Positions 22,590-58,175 of a DNA stretch of 64,000 bases are shown one piece after another; the first letter of the stretch is position 1, and the number at the start of each line of letters is the position of its first letter. The DNA comes from a virus. The notes below the pieces were generated by a model. It was not told where the DNA came from. It saw only the letters and a program-made list of their open reading frames with translations, and made no database searches. Both the position numbers and the translations under genes were made by a program. The DNA lies in the UHGV virus genome UHGV-0021788; one strand, written 5' to 3'.

Positions 22590-23083
22590 ATGGCAAAAGC
22601 AAAAAAAGAAATAAAGAAAATAATATGTACTACTTGTGGAAGAGAATTGCCTGAAAAAGATTTTGGTAAATCTTACTCATTTAGAGATAAACTAAATGGA
22701 AGATTGCCAATTTGCAAAGACTGTTGTGCTAGTTTATATGATAAGCTAATGGTAGATTATCAAGATGAAATGAAAGCATTATATAGATTTTGTATGATAT
22801 TAGATTTATATTTTTCTAAGGATACAGTTATGGGATTAATAAGTAAGAATAGAAATTCCGAAAGTAATCTTGGATATTTATATGTATTAAAATATAATTT
22901 AGTACAATATAAAAATAAAACATTCCAAGATACAACGGCATTTGTAAATATATTTGGTATGACTGAAGAAGAAATGGAAGAAGCATTATATTTGAATACT
23001 GAAAAAACAAAAGAAGAAATAGAAAGAAAAACTAAAAAAATAGTTACTCCAGAAGTAATCAAGCGTTGGGGTAATTGCCCCCT
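22590..23083 (+). CDS. Exon 1 of a three-exon gene immediately upstream of terL (possible small terminase subunit; Zn-ribbon N-terminus 'CTTCGRELPEKDF...PICKDCC')
   Basis: ORF runs into the group I intron 5' region; the in-frame stop at 23091 lies inside conserved intron sequence 'ccctatgtttataaaaaacatag'. Exon end approximate. Confidence 0.5.
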
Positions 23084-23439
23084 ATGTTTATAAAAAACAT
23101 AGCAAACCTTTTGAATTGCTGGAAACCCCTAAAGCTTAATACACTACAACGTGGCTAGAAATGGCGAACGTGAATGTTACGAAAGTAGAAAAAAGTTGTT
23201 AAGATGATATATGGTTAAATCCTAAGTATTGTTAATAATGGGCAATCAGCAACTAAGATTCTAAATGATAATTTATCATATGAATAAAGTCCAACGACTA
23301 GAGCATAGCTCGTACACTCAAGCGAGTGGAAGTGGAAGGTGTCCTATAAATATAGGATAATGATATAGTCTAATCTCATATGAAAATATGAGCAGTCGAA
23401 AGACGGTATGTATGTGGCGAATACATATGAATATAAATG
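23084..23439 (+). mobile_element. Group I intron A (family 1, no ORF, ~356 nt)
   Basis: P 'gaattgctggaaa' (23117), Q 'aatcagcaac' (23243), R 'ccaacgactagag' (23292), S 'aatgatatagtc' (23360). P2 hairpin 'ctatgttt...aaacatag'; P9-like hairpin and 3' 'gaatataaatg'. Confidence 0.8.
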
Positions 23440-23809
23440 TTCAGATTTAGAGTTAGACGATTATATTTTTCTTGAAGATAGATATAATCAGATGCTTTTA
23501 GCCTATGATGATAAGAACCCTTCATCATTGTGGTCATATCAAGAAATATGTATGAATTATTTACTCCTTAGAAAAGATAGAGGAAATGTTCAACTTCAAA
23601 AAAGTATCCAAGAAATTAATAGTAAATTACAAGCAGATTGTAAAATGAAGTTATCACAAATAGATAATGATGATGATGATAATGCTTGTTTTGGAAAGTT
23701 TATAGATAAAATAGAATTATATGAACCATGTAATAAAAAATTACCATTCTTTGAAGATATAGATGGAATAAGACAATACTTAAAACGATGGAAACAAAAA
23801 GCCACGACT
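23440..23809 (+). CDS. Exon 2 of the terminase-small-like gene
   Basis: Open frame continuing from 23408 ORF; ends at 'gccacgact' before the intron B conserved block; in-frame with exon 3 by U/G-rule junctions. Confidence 0.45.
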
Positions 23810-24203
23810 GTATAGAAATATGCAGTGGACACAGATTTAATTGCAGGTAATTCCTAAAGCCTTACACCAAAACGGAAGGTGAAAACCTAAACGGCAACGG
23901 TACGAAAGTAGAAAAAACGTAAGGATGAATATAAGGTTAAATCCTAAGTATTCAAACATATTTATATATGTTAAAATGGATGTTCATGCAAGGAAGTTCT
24001 TAAGTGATATATTATTATATCATATGGAAAACCTTCAACGACTAGAGTTTAAATACTCGTAGGGTATAAGTGATTGATACTCGAAAAGGTCTGCCCTTAA
24101 CAGGTAGTGCTGAAGGTGAAGAAATAGTCTAGTCACTCTAGGAAACTAGGTGCTTAGAATTAACTAAGGTTTATAGTGTAGCGACTATAAATAAATATTA
24201 ACG
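23810..24203 (+). mobile_element. Group I intron B (family 1 variant, no ORF, ~394 nt)
   Basis: P 'taattgcaggtaattcc', Q 'ggatgttcatgcaagg', R 'ccttcaacgactagag' (24033), S 'agaaatagtctag' (24127). Its 5' and P/Q regions are near-identical to the TMP intron K. Confidence 0.75.
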
Positions 24204-24380
24204 TTCGTTTTGCCTTTTGCGAAGCAGTGGAAACTAGCTAAAAATGATGTATTAGAAGGAGAGGAAGGAATAGAGGATTATGAAGATGTAGATAAAATAT
24301 ATAATGAACAAAATAAAAATAAAGTCGAAGCAGAGAATGAAGTAGATAACGAGGTAGGTGAGGAAGACAATGACGAGTAG
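24204..24380 (+). CDS. Exon 3 of the terminase-small-like gene (acidic C-terminus '...EGEEGIEDYEDVDK...EEDNDE'), overlapping terL start
   Basis: 177-nt open frame ending TAG 24378-80, beginning directly after the intron-B terminal G. Confidence 0.45.
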   Translation, partial: FVLPFAKQWKLAKNDVLEGEEGIEDYEDVDKIYNEQNKNKVEAENEVDNEVGEEDNDE

Positions 24381-24920
24381 CGTAAAAGAAAATATCGAAG
24401 AAGAAAAAATACTTTCTGACGAAGTCATGAAAAGTCCTCATAAAAAAAGAAGAAATTTATCCCAAAGAAAAAAAGATAGATTAAATGAAGGTATGAAAAT
24501 ATGGACTGCATTCTATAGGTTAAACATCCATAGATTCGCACTCGATTTTTTGGGACTTAATTTATATCCGTTCCAAATTATATTGCTTTATATGATGAAT
24601 ATAATGTATAGCACTTGCCTAATATGTGCCAGAGGGTTATCGAAATCGTATATGACAGCAATATTTCTTTGTTGTAAAGCAATATTATATCCAAATAGTT
24701 TAATTGTAGTTTCTTGTTCAACTAAGGAGCAAGCCAGAAATCTTATAAAGGAGAAGATAGCTAAAGAACTATGTTCTCAGTCAAAAATGTTAAATAGAGA
24801 AATTGCTAAAGTAGTCACCGGTACTAATGAAACAGTGGTCATCTTCAATAACGGTAGTACTATTCAAGCGGTGAATGCTTCTCAAAATACAAGAGGTCTT
24901 AGATGTCATGTACTCGTGGT
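24358..24920 (+). CDS. Large terminase subunit, exon 1 (ATPase N-terminal part incl. Walker A)
   Basis: GTG start; 'CLICARGLSKSY' Walker A-like; ends '...RGLRCHVLVV' immediately before the expected Walker B 'DE'. Confidence 0.7.
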
Positions 24921-24989
24921 AGTAATCTGCCTAGATATACATATATATAAAAGTATATCCGTAATTGGGTAAAATCGGTAAAAGCTAAG

Positions 24990-25044
24990 TTTTACTTTAC
25001 ATTTTATAGTTATTATAGTATAATATAAGTAAGGAGGGGATATT
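24990..25044 (+). promoter_or_regulatory. Conserved promoter + RBS cassette (copy 4) inside intron C
   Basis: 'ttttactttacattttatagttattatagtataatataagtaaggagggg'. Confidence 0.6.
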
Positions 25045-25794
25045 ATGAGTAGAGTTGGTGAAAAAATTATTGATAATTATGGTGTTGAAATGGAAATTAT
25101 AGAATATACAAATTGTAAAAAAATAAAAGTAAGATTTAACGATGAATATGGAGTTATAATCAATACAAGATATGATTGTTTTATAGATAAGAGAATAAAA
25201 AACCCATATAGAAAATCATTTCAAGGAGTAGGATATATAGGTGTAGGTAAATATTCTTCAAAAAACACCGAAATAATGAATTGTTGGAGTAATATGTTAA
25301 AAAGATGTTATAAAGAAAACGGTAAAGATATAACATATGAAGATTGTTATGTTTGTGAAGAATGGCATAATTTTCAAAACTTCGCTAAATGGTATGAAGA
25401 AAATTATTATGAAGTAGATGGTAAATCTACATTTCTTGATAAGGATATATTATATAAAGGTAATAAAATATATTCTCCTGAAACTTGTGTGTTTGTACCA
25501 AGGTTAATAAATAATCTTTTTACCAAGAGACAAAATGAACGTGGCTTATATCCTATTGGTGTAGAACCATATAAAAACACAAATAAATTTATATCAATAA
25601 TTAGTGAAACTCATAGATATACAAAAACAAAAAGAACACATTTAGGTATTAGAGATACAATTGAAGAAGCATTTTATTTATATAAAATATATAAAGAAAA
25701 ATTAATAAAAGATATTGCAAATGAATATAAGAACGATATACCTAAAAAATTATATTATGCATTACATAATTATAAAGTAGAAATAACAGATTAA
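25045..25794 (+). CDS. Intron-encoded putative homing endonuclease / DNA-binding protein with AP2-like domain (different family from the other six)
   Basis: 'THLGIRDTIEEAFYLYKIYKEKL' resembles the AP2 DNA-binding domain common in phage HNH/NUMOD homing endonucleases. Lacks the 'LPFDFYLP' motif. No HNH/GIY-YIG motif recognised by eye. Confidence 0.45.
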   Translation: MSRVGEKIIDNYGVEMEIIEYTNCKKIKVRFNDEYGVIINTRYDCFIDKRIKNPYRKSFQGVGYIGVGKYSSKNTEIMNCWSNMLKRCYKENGKDITYEDCYVCEEWHNFQNFAKWYEENYYEVDGKSTFLDKDILYKGNKIYSPETCVFVPRLINNLFTKRQNERGLYPIGVEPYKNTNKFISIISETHRYTKTKRTHLGIRDTIEEAFYLYKIYKEKLIKDIANEYKNDIPKKLYYALHNYKVEITD

Positions 25795-26051
25795 ATAAAA
25801 TATGCCAATACCGAGTTAACTGATAAAATTAAAAAGTTGTCAGTAATGTAGAGCATAGAGATTGAACCTTTGTAAGAACTATTATATAATAGTTCTTTTT
25901 TGATTACAAAGAATAAAATATTTCCAAGAGTATCCAACACCTTATTGTATGAGGTGAAAATGTATGCCAAGCTTATAGGAAACTATAAGAGGTGGATGTG
26001 TGAATTGACACACTATTAATAGATAAAAAGCTCCACGATAAAACTTTGAGA

Positions 26052-26083
26052 TGAGTACAGAATGATACAAGGAGTAACATATA
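26052..26083 (+). CDS. Large terminase mini-exon 2 (32 nt) encoding '(V)DEYRMIQGVT' = Walker B
   Basis: Joining 24920|26052 gives '...VLVVDEYRMIQGV' (canonical TerL Walker B 'hhhhDE'). 5' exon ends in U, intron in G. Confidence 0.55.
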
Positions 26084-26442
26084 GCTCCCTATGTTTATAA
26101 AAAGCATAGAAAAACTCTTTAATTGCTGGAATATCCTAAAGCCAATTAAACTACAACGTAGAGTTAAAACTCAAGCGTGAACGTGGCGAAAGCAGAAAAA
26201 ATTAATTGGATAGCATAAGGTTAAATCCTAAGTGCTATAGACAATGGACAATCAGCAGGGAAGTCCCTTTAAAATGGGAAACCTTCAACGACTAGAACGC
26301 AAGTTCGTAGGGTGTAAGTGATTGACACTCGAAATGGGAGTTACCTAATTAAATAGGTAGTGATATAGTCTAGTCTTATATGAAAATATAAGCAGTTCAT
26401 AAGAGAACGTACATAATGTAGCGAATTATGTAGAATATAACG
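26084..26442 (+). mobile_element. Group I intron D (family 1, no ORF, ~359 nt)
   Basis: P 'taattgctggaat' (26120), Q 'aatcagcaggg' (26253), R 'ccttcaacgactagaac' (26293), S 'gtgatatagtctag' (26372). Confidence 0.8.
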
Positions 26443-26580
26443 GTTTTGATACCTTAAACTCAGTATTAAGACCATTCTTAAACTGTGTTAGAATACCAAA
26501 ATTTAAAAATAGAGATGATGGAAAATACGCAGATTATCCAACTGAGGAAAACCAAGAAATTTACTTAAGCAGTGCGTGGT
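26443..26580 (+). CDS. Large terminase exon 3 ('CFDTLNSVLRPFLNCVRIPKFKNRDDGKYADYPTEENQEIYLSSAW')
   Basis: Only open frame across this 138-nt segment between introns D and C'; frame-consistent with exons 2 and 4 under U/G-rule junctions. Confidence 0.5.
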
Positions 26581-26685
26581 AAATTCGTGCCACTTTATAT
26601 AGCGATATATAAAACAAATTGGGCAAAATCGGTCATAGTAAATCGTGAGATTAAGCTGATAAGAGAGACTAAGTATTGTTTAAAA

Positions 26686-26740
26686 TTTTACTTTTAATAA
26701 AAAATATAGTATAATATAAGTAATGGGGGTGAATATTAAA
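26686..26740 (+). promoter_or_regulatory. Conserved promoter + RBS cassette (copy 5)
   Basis: 'ttttacttttaataaaaaatatagtataatataagtaatggggg'. Confidence 0.6.
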
Positions 26741-27472
26741 ATGAATAAAATAACTACAGAAATAGCATTAAAACGAATTAATGATAAAATAAAAGAAACT
26801 AATACAACATTATATGTTGTTAATTTTGAATATGTAAAAAAGAAAAGTATAATTTATATGAAATGTAAAGTATGTGGAAAAGAAGTTGAAAGAGATTATT
26901 GGAGATTTATTCATGCAGGTGGAAAATGTGAATGCCAATATAAATATAGAAGATGGACTGAAGAAAGATGCATAGAATTAATAAAAAATAATGATTATAA
27001 TGATGAATATGAATTTGTAAATTTCAATACAGGAGCTAATATTACAATAAAACATAATATATGTAATCATGAATTTACTAGAGCTTCTTGGAATATAAAA
27101 GACAATGGTTTAAAATGTCCATCATGTTATCCACTTGATAGTGCAGGAGAATTGAATATTGAGAATTATTTAAAATCAAAAAATATTTTATATCAAAAAC
27201 AGAAAAGATTTAAAGGATGTAAAAATAAAAAGACATTACCATTTGATTTTTATTTACCACAATATAATTGTTGTATAGAATTCGATGGCGAACAACATTT
27301 TAAACCTGTCGAACACTTAGGTGGAGAAAAACACTATAATAATACAGTCATAAATGATGAAATAAAAAATGAATTTTGTAGAAAAAATAATATACTTTTA
27401 TTAAGAGTACCTTTTTATAAAATAAATGATGTAAATGATATTATTGAAAATTTTTTAAACAATATAAGTTAA
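26741..27472 (+). CDS. Intron-encoded modular homing endonuclease: 2 Cys/His DNA-binding-like repeats + C-terminal Vsr/DUF559-like (PD-(D/E)xK-variant) nuclease
   Basis: 'TLPFDFYLPQYNCCIEFDGEQHF...NILLLRVPF' matches the Vsr/DUF559 pattern (D...hIE.DG..H...R). ATG 26741 after 'GGGGGTG'. Confidence 0.65.
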   Translation: MNKITTEIALKRINDKIKETNTTLYVVNFEYVKKKSIIYMKCKVCGKEVERDYWRFIHAGGKCECQYKYRRWTEERCIELIKNNDYNDEYEFVNFNTGANITIKHNICNHEFTRASWNIKDNGLKCPSCYPLDSAGELNIENYLKSKNILYQKQKRFKGCKNKKTLPFDFYLPQYNCCIEFDGEQHFKPVEHLGGEKHYNNTVINDEIKNEFCRKNNILLLRVPFYKINDVNDIIENFLNNIS

Positions 27473-27712
27473 TACCGAGGTAAGATAGAAAATTAAAAAG
27501 TTCTATCCACCGTAACGCATAGAGATTGAACCTTTGTAAGAACTATTATATAATAGTTCTTTTTTAATTGCAAAGAATAAAATATCTCCAAGAGTGCCCA
27601 CTTCTATATTGTATAGAAGAAAATATATGCTGGACTGGGTATGAATCGACATACCATAATGCGAGGAAACTCCCAGAACTAGAGGATAAAAAGCCTTTAG
27701 GGTAACAAAACG

Positions 27713-28797
27713 TTGAGAATCATTGGAGTTATGACCTTTATTCTTCCCATGTTAAGAAAATGTTAGCAGGTGATGATTATTTTGTATGTAATCTGCCTTA
27801 TCAATTATCTGCCTATCATGGAATATTAACTAAAAAAAGAATACAAGATATTTTATCAGATGAGAATATGTCAGAAATATCATTTACGATGGAATTTGAA
27901 GCGTTATTTTATTCTGATAAAGATACTAGTTATTTTAAATCAAGTGATATATTACCTTGTAGAACATTAGAGTATGCATGGTATCCTCCAACACCAGAGG
28001 AATATTATAGAAATAAAAATAAAGAGAAAAAGAGTTATTATTTAAAGAAATTAAATGATAAAGAACTTAGAGTAATCAGTTGTGATATAGCTTTAATGAA
28101 CAGTAAAAATGGACATGACAATGATAATGCCGTATTTACTTTTATAAGAAGTATTCCAAAGAATCAAAATTATATATCACAAGTTTTATGGCAACAAACT
28201 CATGAAGGATACAAAGCTAAGCAATTAGCATTAAATATAAAAAGATTATATTTTGATACTCAAAGTGATTATATAGTACTAGATACTGCCGGTAGTGGTA
28301 TATCTGTATTAGATGAGTTAGGTGAATACACAACTGATGTAGAAAGAGGAATAGTTTATCCTCCATTAAAAGCAATGAATGATGAAAAATATGAAGAACG
28401 TTGTGGTTATTCAGAAGCACAAAAATCTATATTTTGTGTTAATGGTAGTACAAAGTTTAACCATGAAATTGCAGTAACTCTTAAAACAGCATTCCAAAAT
28501 AAAACCATTAGATTATTAAAAACACAATTTGAAGCAGATGATTTTATAGAGGGATATAATAAAATGTCTCCTAAAGAACAAGCTGATAAGTTGATGCCTT
28601 ATGTTCAAACTTCTTTAATGCAAGATGAAATAACTCAATTGGAATATGAAGTAAAAGATTCTTATATTAAACTTTATGAAACAACAGGTAAACGTAAAGA
28701 TAGATATTCAAGTTTAGCTTATGGTAATTACTTTATAAGAGAAAGAGAAAAAAAATTAAAGAAAAAGAAAAAAGGTGGATTAGCTAATCTATGGTAG
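27713..28797 (+). CDS. Large terminase exon 4 (nuclease domain)
   Basis: 'FENHWSYDL...RVISCDIALMNSKNGHDNDNAVFTF' (RNase-H-like nuclease first Asp motif); size and position before the portal gene. Confidence 0.7.
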
Positions 28798-28834: not shown

Positions 28835-30295
28835 GTGAGTGAAGAAAAAAAGCAAAAGAAGTTGTTTGCTGAAACTTCTGTAGCTAACAATGCACAAAAA
28901 TATACAACTAAACCAGTTAAATATAGTGCTAGTGAAATAATGGGATTCTTAGAAGACCCACAAGCAAATGCACTTAATTTACAAAAAGCTAGTATTTGGT
29001 TGTATTATAATAGCGGTATTTATAATAGATTAATTAATAACTATGCTGGTATGAATATTTATGATTTATATTTATATCCAACTACAATTAGTAAATTTTC
29101 TAAATCAAAAAGAAAAATAACTCCTGAAAAATTATATAAAGATTATTTAGATATAAGTAATTTATTAGAAAGAATTAGTTGGAAGTCTAATTATCGTAAT
29201 ATAGGAATTAATCTTATGATACAAGGAGAAGTTTTCTTATATGATGTATCTGATAATCAAGGTACTATATTAAAAGAGATACCAACAGAAATATGTAAAA
29301 TATGTAAGGTTATAAATGATAATCTATATAAATATGCGATTAATATTAATAAATTAGGTACAGTTGATTATTATTCAATGATGCCTATGGGATTACAAAG
29401 ATTATATGACCAACATAAGGCAGGTACATTACCACCTGAACAATATTTAGGAACTGCTGGTTCTGGTTATGTAATAGTAGATGACCCAGAAGCAATATGT
29501 TTGAGTTTAAATAATATGACTTCAACAAAATCTGTTCCACCTTTATCTTATTTATTTCCTTCATTATTAAGATTAATGGAAGAAGAAGAAAATGAAGTTG
29601 TGGAAAATAAAGCCAATAACTTAAAAATGATACATATGCAATATGATGTAGATGATGAAGGTGAATCAAAAATAGCAGAAGCAGACCTTATAAAAATGCA
29701 TAATTCAGCTAAAGCTAATTTGCCAGTAGGAGTTTGTGTAAATACCAATCCTTTAAAAGTACAAGCGTTAACATTACAAAGAACTGGTAATGTAAATGCA
29801 AGTAATAGACAAACATTAACTGAATTAGTTTATAATAATTCAGGTGTTAATAGTGAAATATTCAATGGTAATCAAAGTAATAACCAAGCTATTCTTACTG
29901 GAGTAACAGCAGATGAAATATATTGTGATACTTTAAATAATCTATTTGAAAATTATACTAAATATAGAATAAAACAATTAAAAAGAAATCCTTTATGGAT
30001 GGTTAGATTTGTAAGAAATACGCAATACAATAAACAAATTTTAATAACTGAATCAATGCAAGGTTGTACAGTGGGATTATCAAGAATGAAATTTTTAGCT
30101 TGTAATCATTATGCACCATTAGAAGCATTATCATTACTTGAATTTGAAACTGAAAATGGTATAGATGAATTTTTTGTACCTCTAGCTACTTCTTATACTC
30201 AAAGTGGAGATGAGGAAGATTTAGGTAGACCTAAAAATTCAGATAACCCTGATAATCAAAAAGATGTTGGTGAGAATCCTGATAGCACTAAATAA
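28835..30295 (+). CDS. Portal protein (486 aa)
   Basis: Size, position directly after terL, acidic C-terminus; GTG start after 'AAAGGGATG' context. Confidence 0.6.
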   Translation: MSEEKKQKKLFAETSVANNAQKYTTKPVKYSASEIMGFLEDPQANALNLQKASIWLYYNSGIYNRLINNYAGMNIYDLYLYPTTISKFSKSKRKITPEKLYKDYLDISNLLERISWKSNYRNIGINLMIQGEVFLYDVSDNQGTILKEIPTEICKICKVINDNLYKYAININKLGTVDYYSMMPMGLQRLYDQHKAGTLPPEQYLGTAGSGYVIVDDPEAICLSLNNMTSTKSVPPLSYLFPSLLRLMEEEENEVVENKANNLKMIHMQYDVDDEGESKIAEADLIKMHNSAKANLPVGVCVNTNPLKVQALTLQRTGNVNASNRQTLTELVYNNSGVNSEIFNGNQSNNQAILTGVTADEIYCDTLNNLFENYTKYRIKQLKRNPLWMVRFVRNTQYNKQILITESMQGCTVGLSRMKFLACNHYAPLEALSLLEFETENGIDEFFVPLATSYTQSGDEEDLGRPKNSDNPDNQKDVGENPDSTK

Positions 30296-32505: not shown

Positions 32506-32760
32506 ATAAATATGAATAAACTTCAACGACTATTGAAATAATTGTAAGAACCTTATCAGAGGTTCTTTTTGATTGCAATTAAAGTAAAGTACTCTTAAGT
32601 AAGAGGAAGTAGAGAATGTCTTATTTAATTAATGTAAGATGAAGTAGAAAATGTCTTATTTAATTAATGTAAGATAATGATATAGTCTCAACGTTTAGCG
32701 AAAGCTAAAGAAGTTCATAAGAGAACTGCGTAAGAATAACGAACTTATGTGAAGATATTG

Positions 32761-35275: not shown

Positions 35276-36187
35276 ATGGCAAGAAAGATTTGGAATGAAA
35301 TTACAATAAAAGAATTTATAGAAAATGAAACAAATTATAAATTCATATCAATAGTTAAATTAAACGGAATGAAATCAATGGTATTAGTATGGTGTGGTAA
35401 TCCTAATCATAAGCCTTATAAAGTTCGATTTGATGCATTTAAAGGTACTTCTAAAAAAGAAGGAACGAGATGTGAACAATGTAGAAGAGAAAAAGATACC
35501 ATTTGGACTAAAGATGAAATTATAAAATATGTAGAATCTCAAGATTATAAATTTATAAGATTTGTAAAATTTAATAAATATGCAAGTACAATAGAAATTC
35601 AATGTAATAAAGGACACGAATCATATGAAACATACTTTAGTAATTTCTATAATAATAGAAGATGTTTTCAATGTCATATAATATGGTCTAAAAAAGATAT
35701 TATTAATTTTGTAGAATCTCAAGATTATAAATTTATAAGATTTATAACATATGAAAAAAATAATAGTTTAATAGAGATAAAGTGTCCTAAAGGACATATG
35801 AATCAAGTTAGATTTAGAAAATTTAAAGAAGGAACTAGATGCCCAAAATGTAATAAATCTAAAGGTGAGGAAAGAGTAAAAGATATATTAAAAGAAATGT
35901 GTATAGATTTTAAATCACAATACAAATTCAAAGATTGTAAATGTAAAAAAGAGTTGCCATTTGATTTTTACATACCTTCATTAAATATTGCAATAGAATA
36001 TGATGGAATACAACATTTTGAAATATTACCACATTGGGGTGGCATTGATAAACTTATAGAAACTAAAATACATGATGAAATAAAAACACAATATTGTAAA
36101 AGAAAAAGAATAAAACTTATTAGAATTCCTTATTGGGAATTTAAAAATATAGAAAATATACTTATAAAAGAATTAGTGTTAAATTAG
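35276..36187 (+). CDS. Intron-encoded modular homing endonuclease: 3 Cys/His repeats + Vsr/DUF559-like nuclease
   Basis: 'ELPFDFYIPSLNIAIEYDGIQHFE...RIKLIRIPYW'; ATG 35276 after 'GGAGGTG'. Confidence 0.65.
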   Translation: MARKIWNEITIKEFIENETNYKFISIVKLNGMKSMVLVWCGNPNHKPYKVRFDAFKGTSKKEGTRCEQCRREKDTIWTKDEIIKYVESQDYKFIRFVKFNKYASTIEIQCNKGHESYETYFSNFYNNRRCFQCHIIWSKKDIINFVESQDYKFIRFITYEKNNSLIEIKCPKGHMNQVRFRKFKEGTRCPKCNKSKGEERVKDILKEMCIDFKSQYKFKDCKCKKELPFDFYIPSLNIAIEYDGIQHFEILPHWGGIDKLIETKIHDEIKTQYCKRKRIKLIRIPYWEFKNIENILIKELVLN

Positions 36188-36345
36188 AATAACCTTCAAC
36201 GACTAGAGCATAAGCTCGTACACTCAAGTGAGTGGAAATGGAGGATGCCTAGAAATAGGTAGTGATATAGTCTTGTCTCATGTGAAAGCATGAGTAGTTC
36301 ATAAGAGAACGGATTAGGAGTAACGACCCTAGTTGAAAATAAACG

Positions 36346-41536: not shown

Positions 41537-41698
41537 TAAATATGAATAAACTTCAACGACTATCCCTAAATGGGAGTACACTCAAGTGGGTGGAAATGGA
41601 GGATACCTAGAAATAGGTAGTGATATAGTCTACTCTTACATGAAAATGTAAGCAGTCGAAAGACGGTATGAGATTAACGACCTCATGCGAATGTTAAG

Positions 41699-48327: not shown

Positions 48328-48615
48328 TTGCCGTTTATATTAGAAATAATATAAATTATTAGAGGGCAAAATCGGTGAAGACTAAGTTTTTATAAATATG
48401 TTGATACCGAGATAACTTATTAGATTGCGAAAGGCTAATAAGTATTGTAGAGCATAGGAATTGAATAAATATAATATTCCCAAGAGTGCCCTCCATTCTA
48501 ACGTAAAAAGACGAGGATGAAAATATATGCCATACTGAGCTAGAATTGACTAGCTGATGAAAATGAGGGAAACCTCCAGAGCATAAGATAAAAAGCTTAT
48601 GGATAATAACAATAG
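48328..48615 (+). mobile_element. Group I intron H (family 2, no ORF, ~290 nt); boundaries approximate
   Basis: P 'aaaatcggtgaagactaagt' (48369), Q 'gataccgag' (48402), R 'gtagagcataggaattgaa' (48447), S 'gaaaatatatgcc' (48521), 3' 'gataaaaagcttatggataataacaatag'. Confidence 0.65.
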
Positions 48616-48640: not shown

Positions 48641-49008
48641 GGCTATATGGAAACATGTAGTACAAATCTCTTTTGAATTGCTGGAAAGGACTTAGAGCCT
48701 ATTGAACTACAACGTAGATGGAAACATCAAGCGTGAATGTTTAAAAATCAATAGGATTGTTTAATCAGCAGGTAAGATTCTAAGTAATAATTTTATATTA
48801 TTATATGAATAAACTTCAACGACTATCCCTTGGATGTTGAAATACATCAATAGGAGTACGGCTCAAGTGATTGGAGTGGGTGAGAATCCCTTAAATGGAA
48901 GTGGAAGAGGACTTATAAAGGTTCAAGATATAGTCTACTCTCGTAGGAAATCTACGAGCAGTCCTTTTTTGGACGGTATATGTGTAGCGAACATATATGA
49001 ATATTAAG
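48641..49008 (+). mobile_element. Group I intron I (family 1, no ORF, ~368 nt); 5' boundary approximate
   Basis: P 'gaattgctggaaagg' (48676), Q 'taatcagcaggtaagattc' (48764), R 'aacttcaacgactatccc' (48823), S 'aagatatagtctac' (48928), 3' 'gaatattaag'. Retains 'atgaataaacttcaacg', the sequence found at the 3' end of HEG insertions. Confidence 0.75.
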
Positions 49009-49396: not shown

Positions 49397-49768
49397 ATGT
49401 AAGATTAGTAAATTTATATAAATTTTTATAAAATACAAAAATCTTAAAATTGCCGTCTTTGATAGAAATATTAAAGATAATTAGAGGGATGTATCGGTGA
49501 AGCCTAAGTCGAAAGATATGGTAATACCGAGGGTATCTTAACAGAGAATATCCGTAACGCATAGGGAGTGAGCGATATTGTTAGCAATAACCTCCCCACG
49601 AGCTTCCTCCACGATTATATATAGGATAATCACTTATAGATGTTGCTACTATAAGTTCTAACGTTAAACGAGAGTGAAAATATATGCTGGACTTATGAGA
49701 AATCATAAGAAGTGGATGTGTGAATCGACACACTATTAATAGATAAAAAGCTCCACGATAACAAATCG
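49397..49768 (+). mobile_element. Group I intron J (family 2, no ORF, 372 nt)
   Basis: P 'gtatcggtgaagcctaagt' (49490), Q 'aataccgagg' (49521), R 'ccgtaacgcatagggagtgagcg' (49551), S 'gaaaatatatgctgg' (49677), P9 'gtggatgtgtgaatcgacacac...ctccacg'. Junction 49396(U)|49769 gives in-frame '...AIAGN-KTQAGVFQALMTGW...'. Confidence 0.75.
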
Positions 49769-58002: not shown

Positions 58003-58175
58003 TTTAACATGAATAACCTTCAACGACTAGAATGCGAATTCGTAGGGTGTAAGTGATTGACACTCGAAAAGGTCTACCCTTAATATTAAGGTGAAGAAAT
58101 AGTCTAGTCTCATATGAAAGTATGAGCAGTTCATAAGAGAACGGTATATGTTTAGCGAACATATATGAATATAAG

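Follow-up and report, generated by a model that had tools for sequence, protein, structure and literature searches.

The virus genome UHGV-0021788 was analysed as one stretch of 64,000 nucleotides (nt), hereafter the window, with a base composition of 26% GC. Its large terminase (TerL) gene lies in pieces on the + strand between positions 24358 and 28797. Four coding pieces can be followed (an open reading frame [ORF] at 24358-24972, short stretches at ~26050-26080 and 26403-26580, and an ORF at 27760-28797), and the ORF listing places two 249-codon ORFs between them, at 25045-25794 and 26723-27472. The original prediction for this locus, a TerL gene in four pieces with three introns, holds: all pieces are on the + strand, and intron-free alleles in relatives cross each site. 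Read in this way, TerL in this AT-rich, SPbeta-like phage is a gene of four exons split by three introns, a pattern far beyond anything attributable to chance. Very probably, it is an SPbeta yonF/phiCD211-type terminase interrupted by three mobile, self-splicing group I introns, with exons corrected as listed here.

24370..24920, + strand: TerL exon 1, from the N-terminus through Walker A (ARGLSKS) to the hydrophobic half of Walker B (HVLVV); ends on U24920 in codon phase 2
24921..26048, + strand: intron 1 (1128 nt), class-2 group I-like, last base G26048
25045..25794, + strand: putative endonuclease gene 1 (249 amino acids [aa]) in the P5 loop of intron 1; AP2-type, labelled 'HNH'
26049..26075, + strand: TerL exon 2, a 27-nt micro-exon, A GAT GAG TAC AGA ATG ATA CAA GGA GT
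26076..26443, + strand: intron 2 (368 nt), without an ORF; Twort/T4-td-like (IA2-type) group I intron
26444..26580, + strand: TerL exon 3 (137 nt), FDTLNSVLRPFLN...EIYLSSAW, ending at U26580 just past the SSA C-motif
26581..27712, + strand: intron 3 (1132 nt), class-2 group I-like and kin of intron 1, last base G27712
26741..27472, + strand: putative endonuclease gene 2 (243 aa, ATG 26741) in the P5 loop of intron 3; zinc ribbons, then a Vsr/PD-(D/E)XK-like domain
27713..28797, + strand: TerL exon 4, completing the ATPase domain and carrying the RNase H-like nuclease domain (ISCDIAL Asp, KDRYSSLAY)

Exon structure and identity of the terminase

We demonstrate the exon structure by alignment with ~20 uninterrupted TerL homologues of 68-73% identity, found by searching a metagenome protein collection. 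The product of exons 24370..24920 + 26049..26075 + 26444..26580 + 27713..28797 contains LVVDEYRMIQGVFDTLNS and LSSAWFENHWSY and aligns without gaps to 14 homologues (alignment A1). Across the junctions, the corrected TerL reads RCHVLVVDEYRMIQGVFDTLNSVLRPFLN where homologues have, e.g., RCHTLVVDEYRMIQGEFETLNSILKPFLN, and LSSAWFENHWSYDLY where they have LSSAWYSSHWSYGLY, in both cases with no gap. The predicted ligated junctions are GTGGT|AGATGAG, GGAGT|TTTTGAT, and TGGT|TTGAGAAT, with the predicted junction peptides VLVVDEYR and LSSAWFENHWSYDLYSSHVK. Exon 1 follows from the ORF listing, a gapless match to homologues P0001-P0021, and relatives L007, L008, and L009, which are uninterrupted at its end. 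The micro-exon codes for (V)DEYRMIQG(V), including the Walker B Asp-Glu. The exon 4 ORF (27760..28797, stop codon 28795-28797) is 96% identical to protein P0027, which is present on >22 contigs of up to 210 kilobases (kb), and its columns C362/D363/I364/A365 are invariant in A1. All three junctions have U at -1 (24920, 26075, and 26580), and all three introns end in G (26048, 26443, and 27712).

The boundaries 24920, 26580, 27713, and 28797 of the original prediction were right. Its 32-nt micro-exon, 26052..26083, is replaced by the 27-nt exon at 26049..26075, its exon 3 start moves by one base from 26443 to 26444, and its start codon, GTG 24358, is probably wrong; we favor ATG 24370, which has GAGGA 5 nt ahead of it and is the start called for the gene in relatives. 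It had described its joins as consistent with a rule of U at -1 and a terminal intron G, which they follow at four of six positions (an A stands at 26051 in place of the G and at 26083 in place of the U). The uninterrupted TerL that it claimed is borne out insofar as the joined frame is open over 1818 nt, but the Walker B Asp is absent and four residues are inserted: against three reference TerL proteins, those joins read VLVV-EYRMIQGVTYSFDT (VLVV-EYRM), with the Asp gone and GVTYS as the insertion. Likewise, they give no match to Pfam Terminase_6N, while the corrected joins score 20.6 bits (cut-off 22) over a match that spans junctions 1 and 2. The motifs do occur in the order predicted, as ARGLSKS, HVLVVDE, LSSAW, and ISCDIAL in the corrected product. 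The product of the original joins is itself colinear with uninterrupted TerL: in tblastn, one piece spans 91-94% of the query for each of phiCD211, LIBA2945, and SPbeta yonF. Altogether, the observation is partly confirmed, in that the split gene is real and the micro-exon was misplaced, and the interpretation (a TerL with three self-splicing introns, two endonuclease genes, and sites at ATPase motifs) is supported by the comparisons reported here.

By similarity and setting, this TerL is a large terminase of the SPbeta yonF/phiCD211 type. The protein is 37-41% identical to, and colinear with, those of Clostridioides phages LIBA2945 and phiCD211 and to YonF of Bacillus phage SPbeta (tblastn), and it matches phrog_2, 'terminase large subunit' (E 7e-18). 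A yonG-like gene, in the position of the small-subunit gene, lies upstream and a portal gene (phrog_2739) downstream, as in SPbeta and phiCD211. The corrected protein reaches 16.8 bits with Pfam TerL_ATPase (cut-off 23.7); P0002, an uninterrupted homologue with 73% identity, clears the Pfam cut-off at 28.9 bits. Two families of 'unknown function', phrog_15503 and phrog_26582, match only the N- or the C-terminal fragment of TerL, which suggests that split copies were earlier catalogued as separate proteins. A megablast of 9 kb of the window against GenBank phages gave no match, and a Protein Data Bank (PDB) sequence search with the TerL profile gave nothing useful.

The introns sit at conserved ATPase motifs. 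Intron 1 lies inside Walker B (HVLVV|DE, i.e., VV|DE), intron 2 lies nine codons downstream of it, and intron 3 is two codons past the SSA C-motif; in relatives, Walker A is a further target. This fits the view in the original prediction that such positions reflect homing into the most conserved DNA.

Relatives provide intron-free versions of every site. We compared eight P0027 loci plus IMG/VR contigs whose TerL exons are 89-97% identical to the window at the nucleotide level (~90-95% for those with intron-free alleles). Site 24920|26049 is uninterrupted in L007, L008, and L009 (GTACTTGTGGT|TGATGAGTAT), site 26075|26444 in L004, L005, L006, and L021 (CAAGGAGG|TTTTGATAC), and site 26580|27713 in L021 (GCCTGGT|TTGAGAATCATTGG); the intron-free target sequences are GTGGTTGATGAG (L007 type) and GCCTGGTTTGAGAAT (L021 type). 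Intron-free alleles cross every site, and each predicted ligation product therefore occurs naturally as contiguous gene sequence. The alleles differ at the flanks: at site 1, exon 2 starts with A if the intron is present and with T if the site is empty; at site 2, it ends with T or G, respectively. Because of the latter difference, an in-frame alternative for junction 2 (26074|26443, GGAGG|TTTT) is weighed below. Intron 1 occurs at the same site as ORF-less copies of 325-328 nt (L005, L021) and, in L006, as the same intron with the same ORF (96% identical). The intron 2 site carries 378 nt without an ORF in L008 and 1537 nt with a 370-aa ORF in L007, L009, and L023, while the intron 3 site of L008 and L011 holds a 352-nt ORF-less copy. 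Absent, ORF-less, and ORF-bearing states are thus all known for each intron, the pattern expected of homing elements. The split architecture itself is also seen in assemblies of different samples in ENA, JGI, Logan, and IMG/VR.

Two classes of intron and their putative endonuclease genes

Intron 2 has a core, CAACGACUA ... GAUAUAGUCU, that we take to be of the Twort/T4-td type. When 26085-26392 is scanned alone, Rfam RF00028 matches at full length with 72.8 bits (E 1e-18; gathering threshold 50). At gathering threshold, an Rfam scan of the whole window found only an intron at 23063-23392 and not intron 2, which an 8-kb Rfam scan at E<=10 also missed. The class-1 core model gives 132 bits, a score that is not independent, as intron 2 is among the sequences from which the model was built. 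P1 pairs GGAGU (26071-26075), the final five bases of the micro-exon, with GCUCC (26084-26088). P1 and P2 are both recovered in the minimum free energy (MFE) fold (z -4.06), and the R and S core elements CAACGACTA and GATATAGTCT lie at 26286 and 26362. All three frames are closed over 26393-26443, and therefore intron 2 would extend through an extra 3' hairpin to G26443. Given the 5' site at 26075, the sole in-frame exon 3 start after a G is 26444; moving both sites together by one base (26074|26443) also keeps the frame.

Introns 1 and 3 resemble each other in their 3' halves and share a variant core, GCAUAGAGAUUGAACC ... GAAAAUAUAUGC, which RF00028 does not score. In intron 1, P1 pairs GGU|AG (24918-24922) with CUGCC (24927-24931), placing U24920 opposite G24929, and P10 pairs AGAU of exon 2 with AUCU (24925-24928). 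Its P3 is 24965-24970/25932-25937, P4 is 24975-24979/25810-25814, and P7 is 25853-25857/25963-25967. In intron 3, P1 pairs GUGGUA (26576-26581) with UGCCAC (26588-26593), and the corresponding helices are P3 26620-26624/27596-27600, P4 26629-26633/27474-27478, and P7 27517-27521/27626-27630. Both follow one order, which we call class 2: P1 with its U·G, a P2 hairpin, P3, J3/4 AAAA, P4 (UCGGU/ACCGA), J4/5 GAAA, a short P5/P5a whose loop houses the ORF, P6, J6/7, P7 (GCAUA/UAUGC), a P7.1/P7.1a insertion between P7 and P3' that is subgroup IA-like, P3', P8, J8/7 (GAAAAUAUA), P7', P9 hairpins, and an end in ...GAUAACAAnnnG. The class-2 strings AACGCAUAGA and AUAUAUGC parallel the class-1 R and S elements AACGACUAGA and GAUAUAGUC.

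To gather class-2 copies, we searched IMG/VR with the 16-mer GCATAGAGATTGAACC, which gave 40 loci, and dropped the high-GC chance matches among them. Copies in unrelated host genes have exon-guide pairs that match too. The 5' strand of P3 was placed solely by its fixed position ahead of the nearly unique motif AAAATCGG, and in every copy it is complementary to the 5-7 nt after GAGU, through ten different helices (e.g., UUGGGU/AUCCAA, UGGGC/GCCCA, UAGAGC/GCUCUA, UCAAUC/GAUUGA, CUGCUC/GAGCAG, and GAGGGU/AUCCUC). Covariation was tested on 13 diverse copies (alignment A2) for P3, P4, P6, P7, P7.1, and P7.1a. In these, 92.9% of cells are paired, compared with 36-50% when partners are slid by 1-3 columns, and 20 of the 38 pairs have changed on both sides (6/6 pairs in P3, 9/10 in P6, and 4/7 in P7.1a). 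The covariation score, 0.412 against 0.135 when shuffled, was exceeded in none of 500 shuffles. These counts leave P8 and inner P6 partly or wholly aside, where the register shifts by one base between copies, and they treat P3 of L016 and L036 as unpaired, one column out of register, where it is perfect by eye (GUGCUGA/UCAGCAC). P3 crosses P7, the pseudoknot topology of group I introns, and the MFE fold of a 352-nt ORF-less copy recovers P3, P4, P6, P7.1/P7.1a, and P8 (z -3.24). The ribozyme-type architecture is thereby demonstrated for the class. In addition, the class-1 core model finds a weak signal over P3'-P8-P7' of intron 1 (25900-25989; 22 bits, E 0.019), and the class-2 5' half resembles introns of Herelleviridae (Staphylococcus, Listeria, Enterococcus, and Bacillus phages), including the DNA polymerase intron of SIOphi. 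On this pairing evidence, we place introns 1 and 3 among the group I introns, in an IA-like class outside the reach of the Rfam model; that phage introns are missed by existing covariance models is a gap described explicitly in earlier work (PMC11878797).

One class-2 element varies by lineage. At 25870-25905 and 27534-27569 (+ strand), the P7.1a stem is stretched to 10 base pairs (bp) followed by U6 (GAACUAUUAUAUAAUAGUUCUUUUUU), a form seen only in the window's lineage, at the same position in L004-L011, L021, and L023; in copies of other lineages, this hairpin has just 2-5 bp. Lying just downstream of the endonuclease ORF, the extended form looks by eye like an intrinsic terminator. A scan for terminators did not pick it up, its G-C pairs being too few.

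The two intron ORFs appear to encode endonucleases of different families, as the original prediction had it: one matches phrog_953 and the other phrog_559, with no detectable similarity between them. The ORF at 25045..25794, preceded by its own AAGGAGGGG ribosome-binding site, matches phrog_953, 374, and 2081, all 'HNH endonuclease' (best phrog_953, E 2.5e-55), and is 46-52% identical to AP2-domain/HNH proteins of Bacillus phages; Pfam HNH gave no match to it. The second ORF is open from 26723, but ATG 26723 falls in the position of the ribosome-binding site. From 26741 to 27472 it matches phrog_559 (E 1.3e-50) and phrog_9084, 'homing endonuclease', and its homologues in lactococcal phage 949, PBS1, and AR9 are annotated as group I intron protein or homing endonuclease. 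PHROG 559 proteins are VSR-fold nucleases found in TerL introns (PMC11878797). With both ORFs as queries, PDB sequence searches gave nothing useful and NCBIfam searches gave no match.

Both ORFs are preceded by the conserved string TAGTATAATATAAGTAA and a strong ribosome-binding site. Ahead of them are promoter-like sites, TTTACA-17-TATAAT at 24996-25024 (11/12 positions) for gene 1 and TTTACT-17-TATAAT at 26687-26715 (10/12 positions) for gene 2, which are the best + strand matches of the region. The promoter scan overall was not enriched (37 matches vs 33.9 in shuffles). The position and conservation of these two sites are suggestive of promoters belonging to the endonuclease genes themselves.

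Proposed splicing and homing, and alternative readings

Altogether, the locus suggests the following sequence of events. The 4.4-kb unit would be transcribed whole as one pre-mRNA in which each intron folds as a ribozyme, its internal guide pairing with the end of the upstream exon to leave a U·G wobble at the cleavage site. Excision would proceed by the two-step, guanosine-initiated reaction, with each intron ending on its terminal G, and the four exons would be ligated into a 599-codon TerL mRNA with Walker A, Walker B, C-motif, and nuclease motifs intact. The endonucleases would presumably cut the intron-free TerL of co-infecting relatives, where repair would copy the intron in. Catalysis, endonuclease activity, and the expression signals of the endonuclease genes are what we infer here; polymorphism of the introns among relatives is observed directly.

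Several points weigh against this interpretation. Splicing of the TerL introns is deduced from their sequence, and some related Bacillus-phage introns are spliced only in vivo (PMC11878797), so that strict self-splicing is not guaranteed. At its threshold of 50 bits, RF00028 matched neither intron 1 nor intron 3, and even at E<=10 it gave no match on the ORF-less copy at L008:6602-6953; we ascribe these misses to the model no less than to the sequences. P7 and P7.1 are complementary but invariant in the 13-copy set and so provide no covariation evidence, in part because the search pattern includes their 5' strands. As for the endonucleases, the ORF at 25045..25794 reaches only 18.1 bits with Pfam AP2 (cut-off 33.3), and the one at 26741..27472 has weak Pfam signals centered on FDFYLP...IEFDGEQH: DUF559 (12.3 bits) and DUF2726 (14.2 bits), both below cut-off, and PvuRts1I-N. 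Single-sequence AlphaFold models made without alignments have pLDDT 34 and 33, respectively. Finally, the alternative form of junction 2, 26074|26443, reproduces the intron-free GGAGG|TTTT, but with G at -1.

Among other readings of the locus, the one that survives best is that the micro-exon is often or mostly skipped, with 24920 joined to 26444, either in addition to the full product or in place of it. The TerL so made would lack precisely DEYRMIQGV, and with it the Walker B carboxylates, while staying in frame: 27 nt is a multiple of three, and the join of exon 1 to exon 3 (GT|T) keeps the frame. Exon skipping by group I introns is known from Twort orf142 and is the dominant variant in SIOphi TerL (PMC11878797). 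An ATPase-dead TerL, however, would be unable to package DNA, so that the full product must be made, and the P1 and P10 pairings of each intron suit its own flanking exons. We consider frequent skipping possible, if on the unlikely side. Two bolder readings, which we regard as doubtful, are (a) that micro-exon skipping yields an ATPase-dead TerL, making splicing a switch or timer of packaging, and (b) that class 2 is a distinct, undescribed group I subgroup. If (a) were true, intron splicing would not be neutral and would act on DNA packaging through a micro-exon between two ribozymes. As for (b), the class-2 scaffold escapes Rfam, occurs widely in Firmicutes phage genes, and carries a terminator-like P7.1a hairpin specific to the window's lineage; if (b) were true, that lineage, with up to seven interruptions in one TerL, would be its richest reservoir.

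Junction 2 could also lie one base to the left, with exon 2 at 26049..26074 and exon 3 from 26443, reading CAA GGA GGT TTT (QGGF). The intron-free relatives read GGAGG|TTTT, which is the mRNA that this junction would give with no exon substitution required; it keeps both the frame and a final intron G (26442), and at the residue concerned most homologues have G or E. The upstream exon would, however, end in G, in a G-C pair, and the wobble of U26075 with G of GCUCC would fall within the intron. Group I introns cleave after the wobble U. Every intron-containing allele has T as the last base of exon 2, and at site 1 the flank base also differs between intron-plus and intron-minus alleles whichever junction is chosen, so flank substitutions accompany these introns in any case. 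We rank the shifted junction lower because cleavage would precede the U·G wobble by one pair, and judge it rather improbable. The two forms would differ in complementary DNA: GGAGTTTTTGAT, with five T, for the junction that we favor and GGAGGTTTTGAT for the shifted one.

That introns 1 and 3 are instead endonuclease cassettes with decayed or non-catalytic flanks, leaving TerL as a pseudogene or as separate fragments, is very improbable. It would agree with the lack of an Rfam match for both introns and with gene callers listing the TerL pieces as separate ORFs, and with the two PHROG families (phrog_15503 and phrog_26582) that match TerL fragments only. Against it stand the strong covariation across 13 diverse copies, including the long-range P3 that spans the ORF, and the ORF-less copies of 325-352 nt that retain the entire class-2 scaffold. 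Moreover, TerL is essential, a 27-nt exon could not yield a protein fragment of its own, and exon frames and catalytic residues are fully conserved at 89-97% nucleotide identity in many independent assemblies; we reject the pseudogene reading. Inteins, group II introns, or assembly artefacts, for which the interruption of the gene is itself the sole point, have practically no probability: each insertion has stops in all three frames, which speaks against inteins; neither a reverse transcriptase nor a group II Rfam match occurs in the insertions, which are 368-1132 nt long; and the same architecture occurs in ENA, JGI, Logan, and IMG/VR assemblies of different samples.

Intron load of the lineage and comparison with known systems

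When the window's spliced coding sequence (CDS) was mapped onto relatives, at least nine interruption sites appeared in TerL, at CDS positions 151, 267, ~370, ~502, 528, 551, 578, 712, and 715. TerL of L023 (710-9887) has seven interruptions, giving a 9.2-kb gene for a 1.8-kb coding sequence; that of L006 (1611-8038) has six and includes two micro-exons in a row, of 26 and 23 nt, and those of L009 (2494-8038) and L010 have five each. Most, though not all, of these insertions bear class-1 or class-2 core motifs. A class-2 intron splits Walker A (ICARG|LSKS), and at CDS 712 and 715, 3 nt from each other, two different class-2 introns are found in different genomes. For the intron near CDS 370, no exact junction was found that agrees with the U/G rule.

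Within the window, the class-1 core model, run with filters off, marks cores at 23280, 24024, 26274, 36185, 41542, 48811, and 58009 (50.7-132 bits), with weaker signals at 32512 and 49654. Counting TerL introns 1 and 3, this amounts to at least nine introns in 64 kb. The Twort/td-like cores outside TerL, all on the + strand, span 36185-36294 (95.3 bits), 41542-41652 (79.5 bits), 48811-48958 (50.7 bits), and 58009-58126 (108.3 bits), together with a weak one at 32512-32690 (18.8 bits); all five have paired CAACGACTA/GATATAGTCT motifs, and none was reported by the whole-window Rfam scan at gathering threshold. Partial sets of class-2 motifs also occur on the + strand, AAAATCGGT at 48368, ATATTCCCAAGAGT at 48474, GAAAATATATGC at 48519 and 49676, and AATACCGAG at 49523, alongside a weak core-model match at 49654-49709. 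The segments 48368-48530 and 49523-49709 may represent one or two further class-2 introns.

Neighboring genes are interrupted as well. The yonG-like gene upstream of TerL (22590-24380, + strand; phrog_3314) is split, and its 285-aa counterpart in relatives has Pfam YonG_N. One group I intron in this gene lies at ~23072-23440 (RF00028 85.1 bits at 23063-23392). A second element begins at ~23810, with 44.5 bits for RF00028, below threshold, and 95.5 bits for the class-1 core model at 24024-24152. Its P1 (ACUGU|AUA...UAUGCAGU) places an apparent stop, TAG 23813-23815, inside the intron, and splicing to ~24204 or 24213 would add the acidic 56-aa ORF at 24210-24380 to the yonG-like product, a tail that resembles the acidic C-terminal tails of SPbeta YonG and the LIBA2945 homologue. 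The portal gene is intact in the window (28835-30295, 486 aa), L008, and L011, and is in two pieces with an endonuclease-like ORF between them in L004-L007, L009, and L010 (8076-10850). The yonD-like gene is split in several relatives too, and intron and endonuclease occupancy differs gene by gene over their packaging and head module. Class-2 core segments are also present in GenBank phages without an annotated intron, namely Streptococcus phage Javan355 (L013, 1116-5077) and Clostridium phage phiCP39-O (L012, ~2430-2900). In Javan355, two CDSs annotated for the tape-measure gene flank a 'homing endonuclease' ORF, whose end holds a class-2 P4'-P6-P7 segment.

These introns matter for annotation: gene callers fragment such a TerL into pieces plus 'hypothetical' ORFs, and a standard Rfam scan recovers one of at least nine introns in the window, so intron-aware annotation is needed for AT-rich gut phages. 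The intron-free, ORF-less, and endonuclease-bearing alleles of close relatives form a natural series for the homing cycle. In this lineage, endonuclease genes and ribozymes have moved independently of each other. The lineage would also permit study of co-infecting phages competing at the packaging ATPase's most conserved codons (Walker A, Walker B, and the C-motif), and its micro-exons of 23-27 nt between ribozymes offer a good test of how adjacent group I introns fold and select splice sites.

Other TerL genes interrupted by two or three group I introns are already published, with splicing shown for some (PMC11878797, PMC12880540); the present one adds a member of this known kind from a different phage group, SPbeta/phiCD211-like, in a lineage whose intron load is exceptional. 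The closest relatives by family, SPbeta yonF and the phiCD211 TerL, share 37-41% identity and the gene order yonG-yonF-yonE, but have no introns. In Bastillevirinae (SIOphi, phiAGATE, Moonbeam, and others), TerL has two or three introns, mostly IA-like, with a small exon lying between two of them; exon skipping occurs in SIOphi, and ribozyme and nuclease types are decoupled (PMC11878797, NAR 2025). As in our phage, endonuclease genes there sit in ribozyme loops, including PHROG 559 nucleases specifically in TerL introns. In contrast, the window phage is SPbeta/phiCD211-like with 26% GC, known from gut or environmental metagenome contigs of 170-210 kb; its TerL belongs to phrog_2/yonF rather than phrog_675; and the intron load of its lineage is heavier, with up to seven interruptions in one TerL.

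The class-1 introns of the window have in common with Twort orf142 and T4 td/nrdB/sunY (IA2) the CAACGACUA...GAUAUAGUCU core and P7.1/P7.2-type insertions. The host genes differ, and introns 1 and 3 here have the variant core. Twort orf142 itself is cited in PMC11878797 as a case of three introns in one gene with exon skipping. The Jug (jumbo gut) phages of Bacteroides have terL in two or three fragments through group I introns, with splicing supported by metatranscriptomes; their genomes are 360-402 kb, their hosts Bacteroidota, and their introns ~206 nt long, with a mean of 18.5 per genome (PMC12880540). They resemble our phage as gut phages with many introns per genome and a split terL, and differ from it in that here at least nine introns lie within 64 kb of an SPbeta-like phage.

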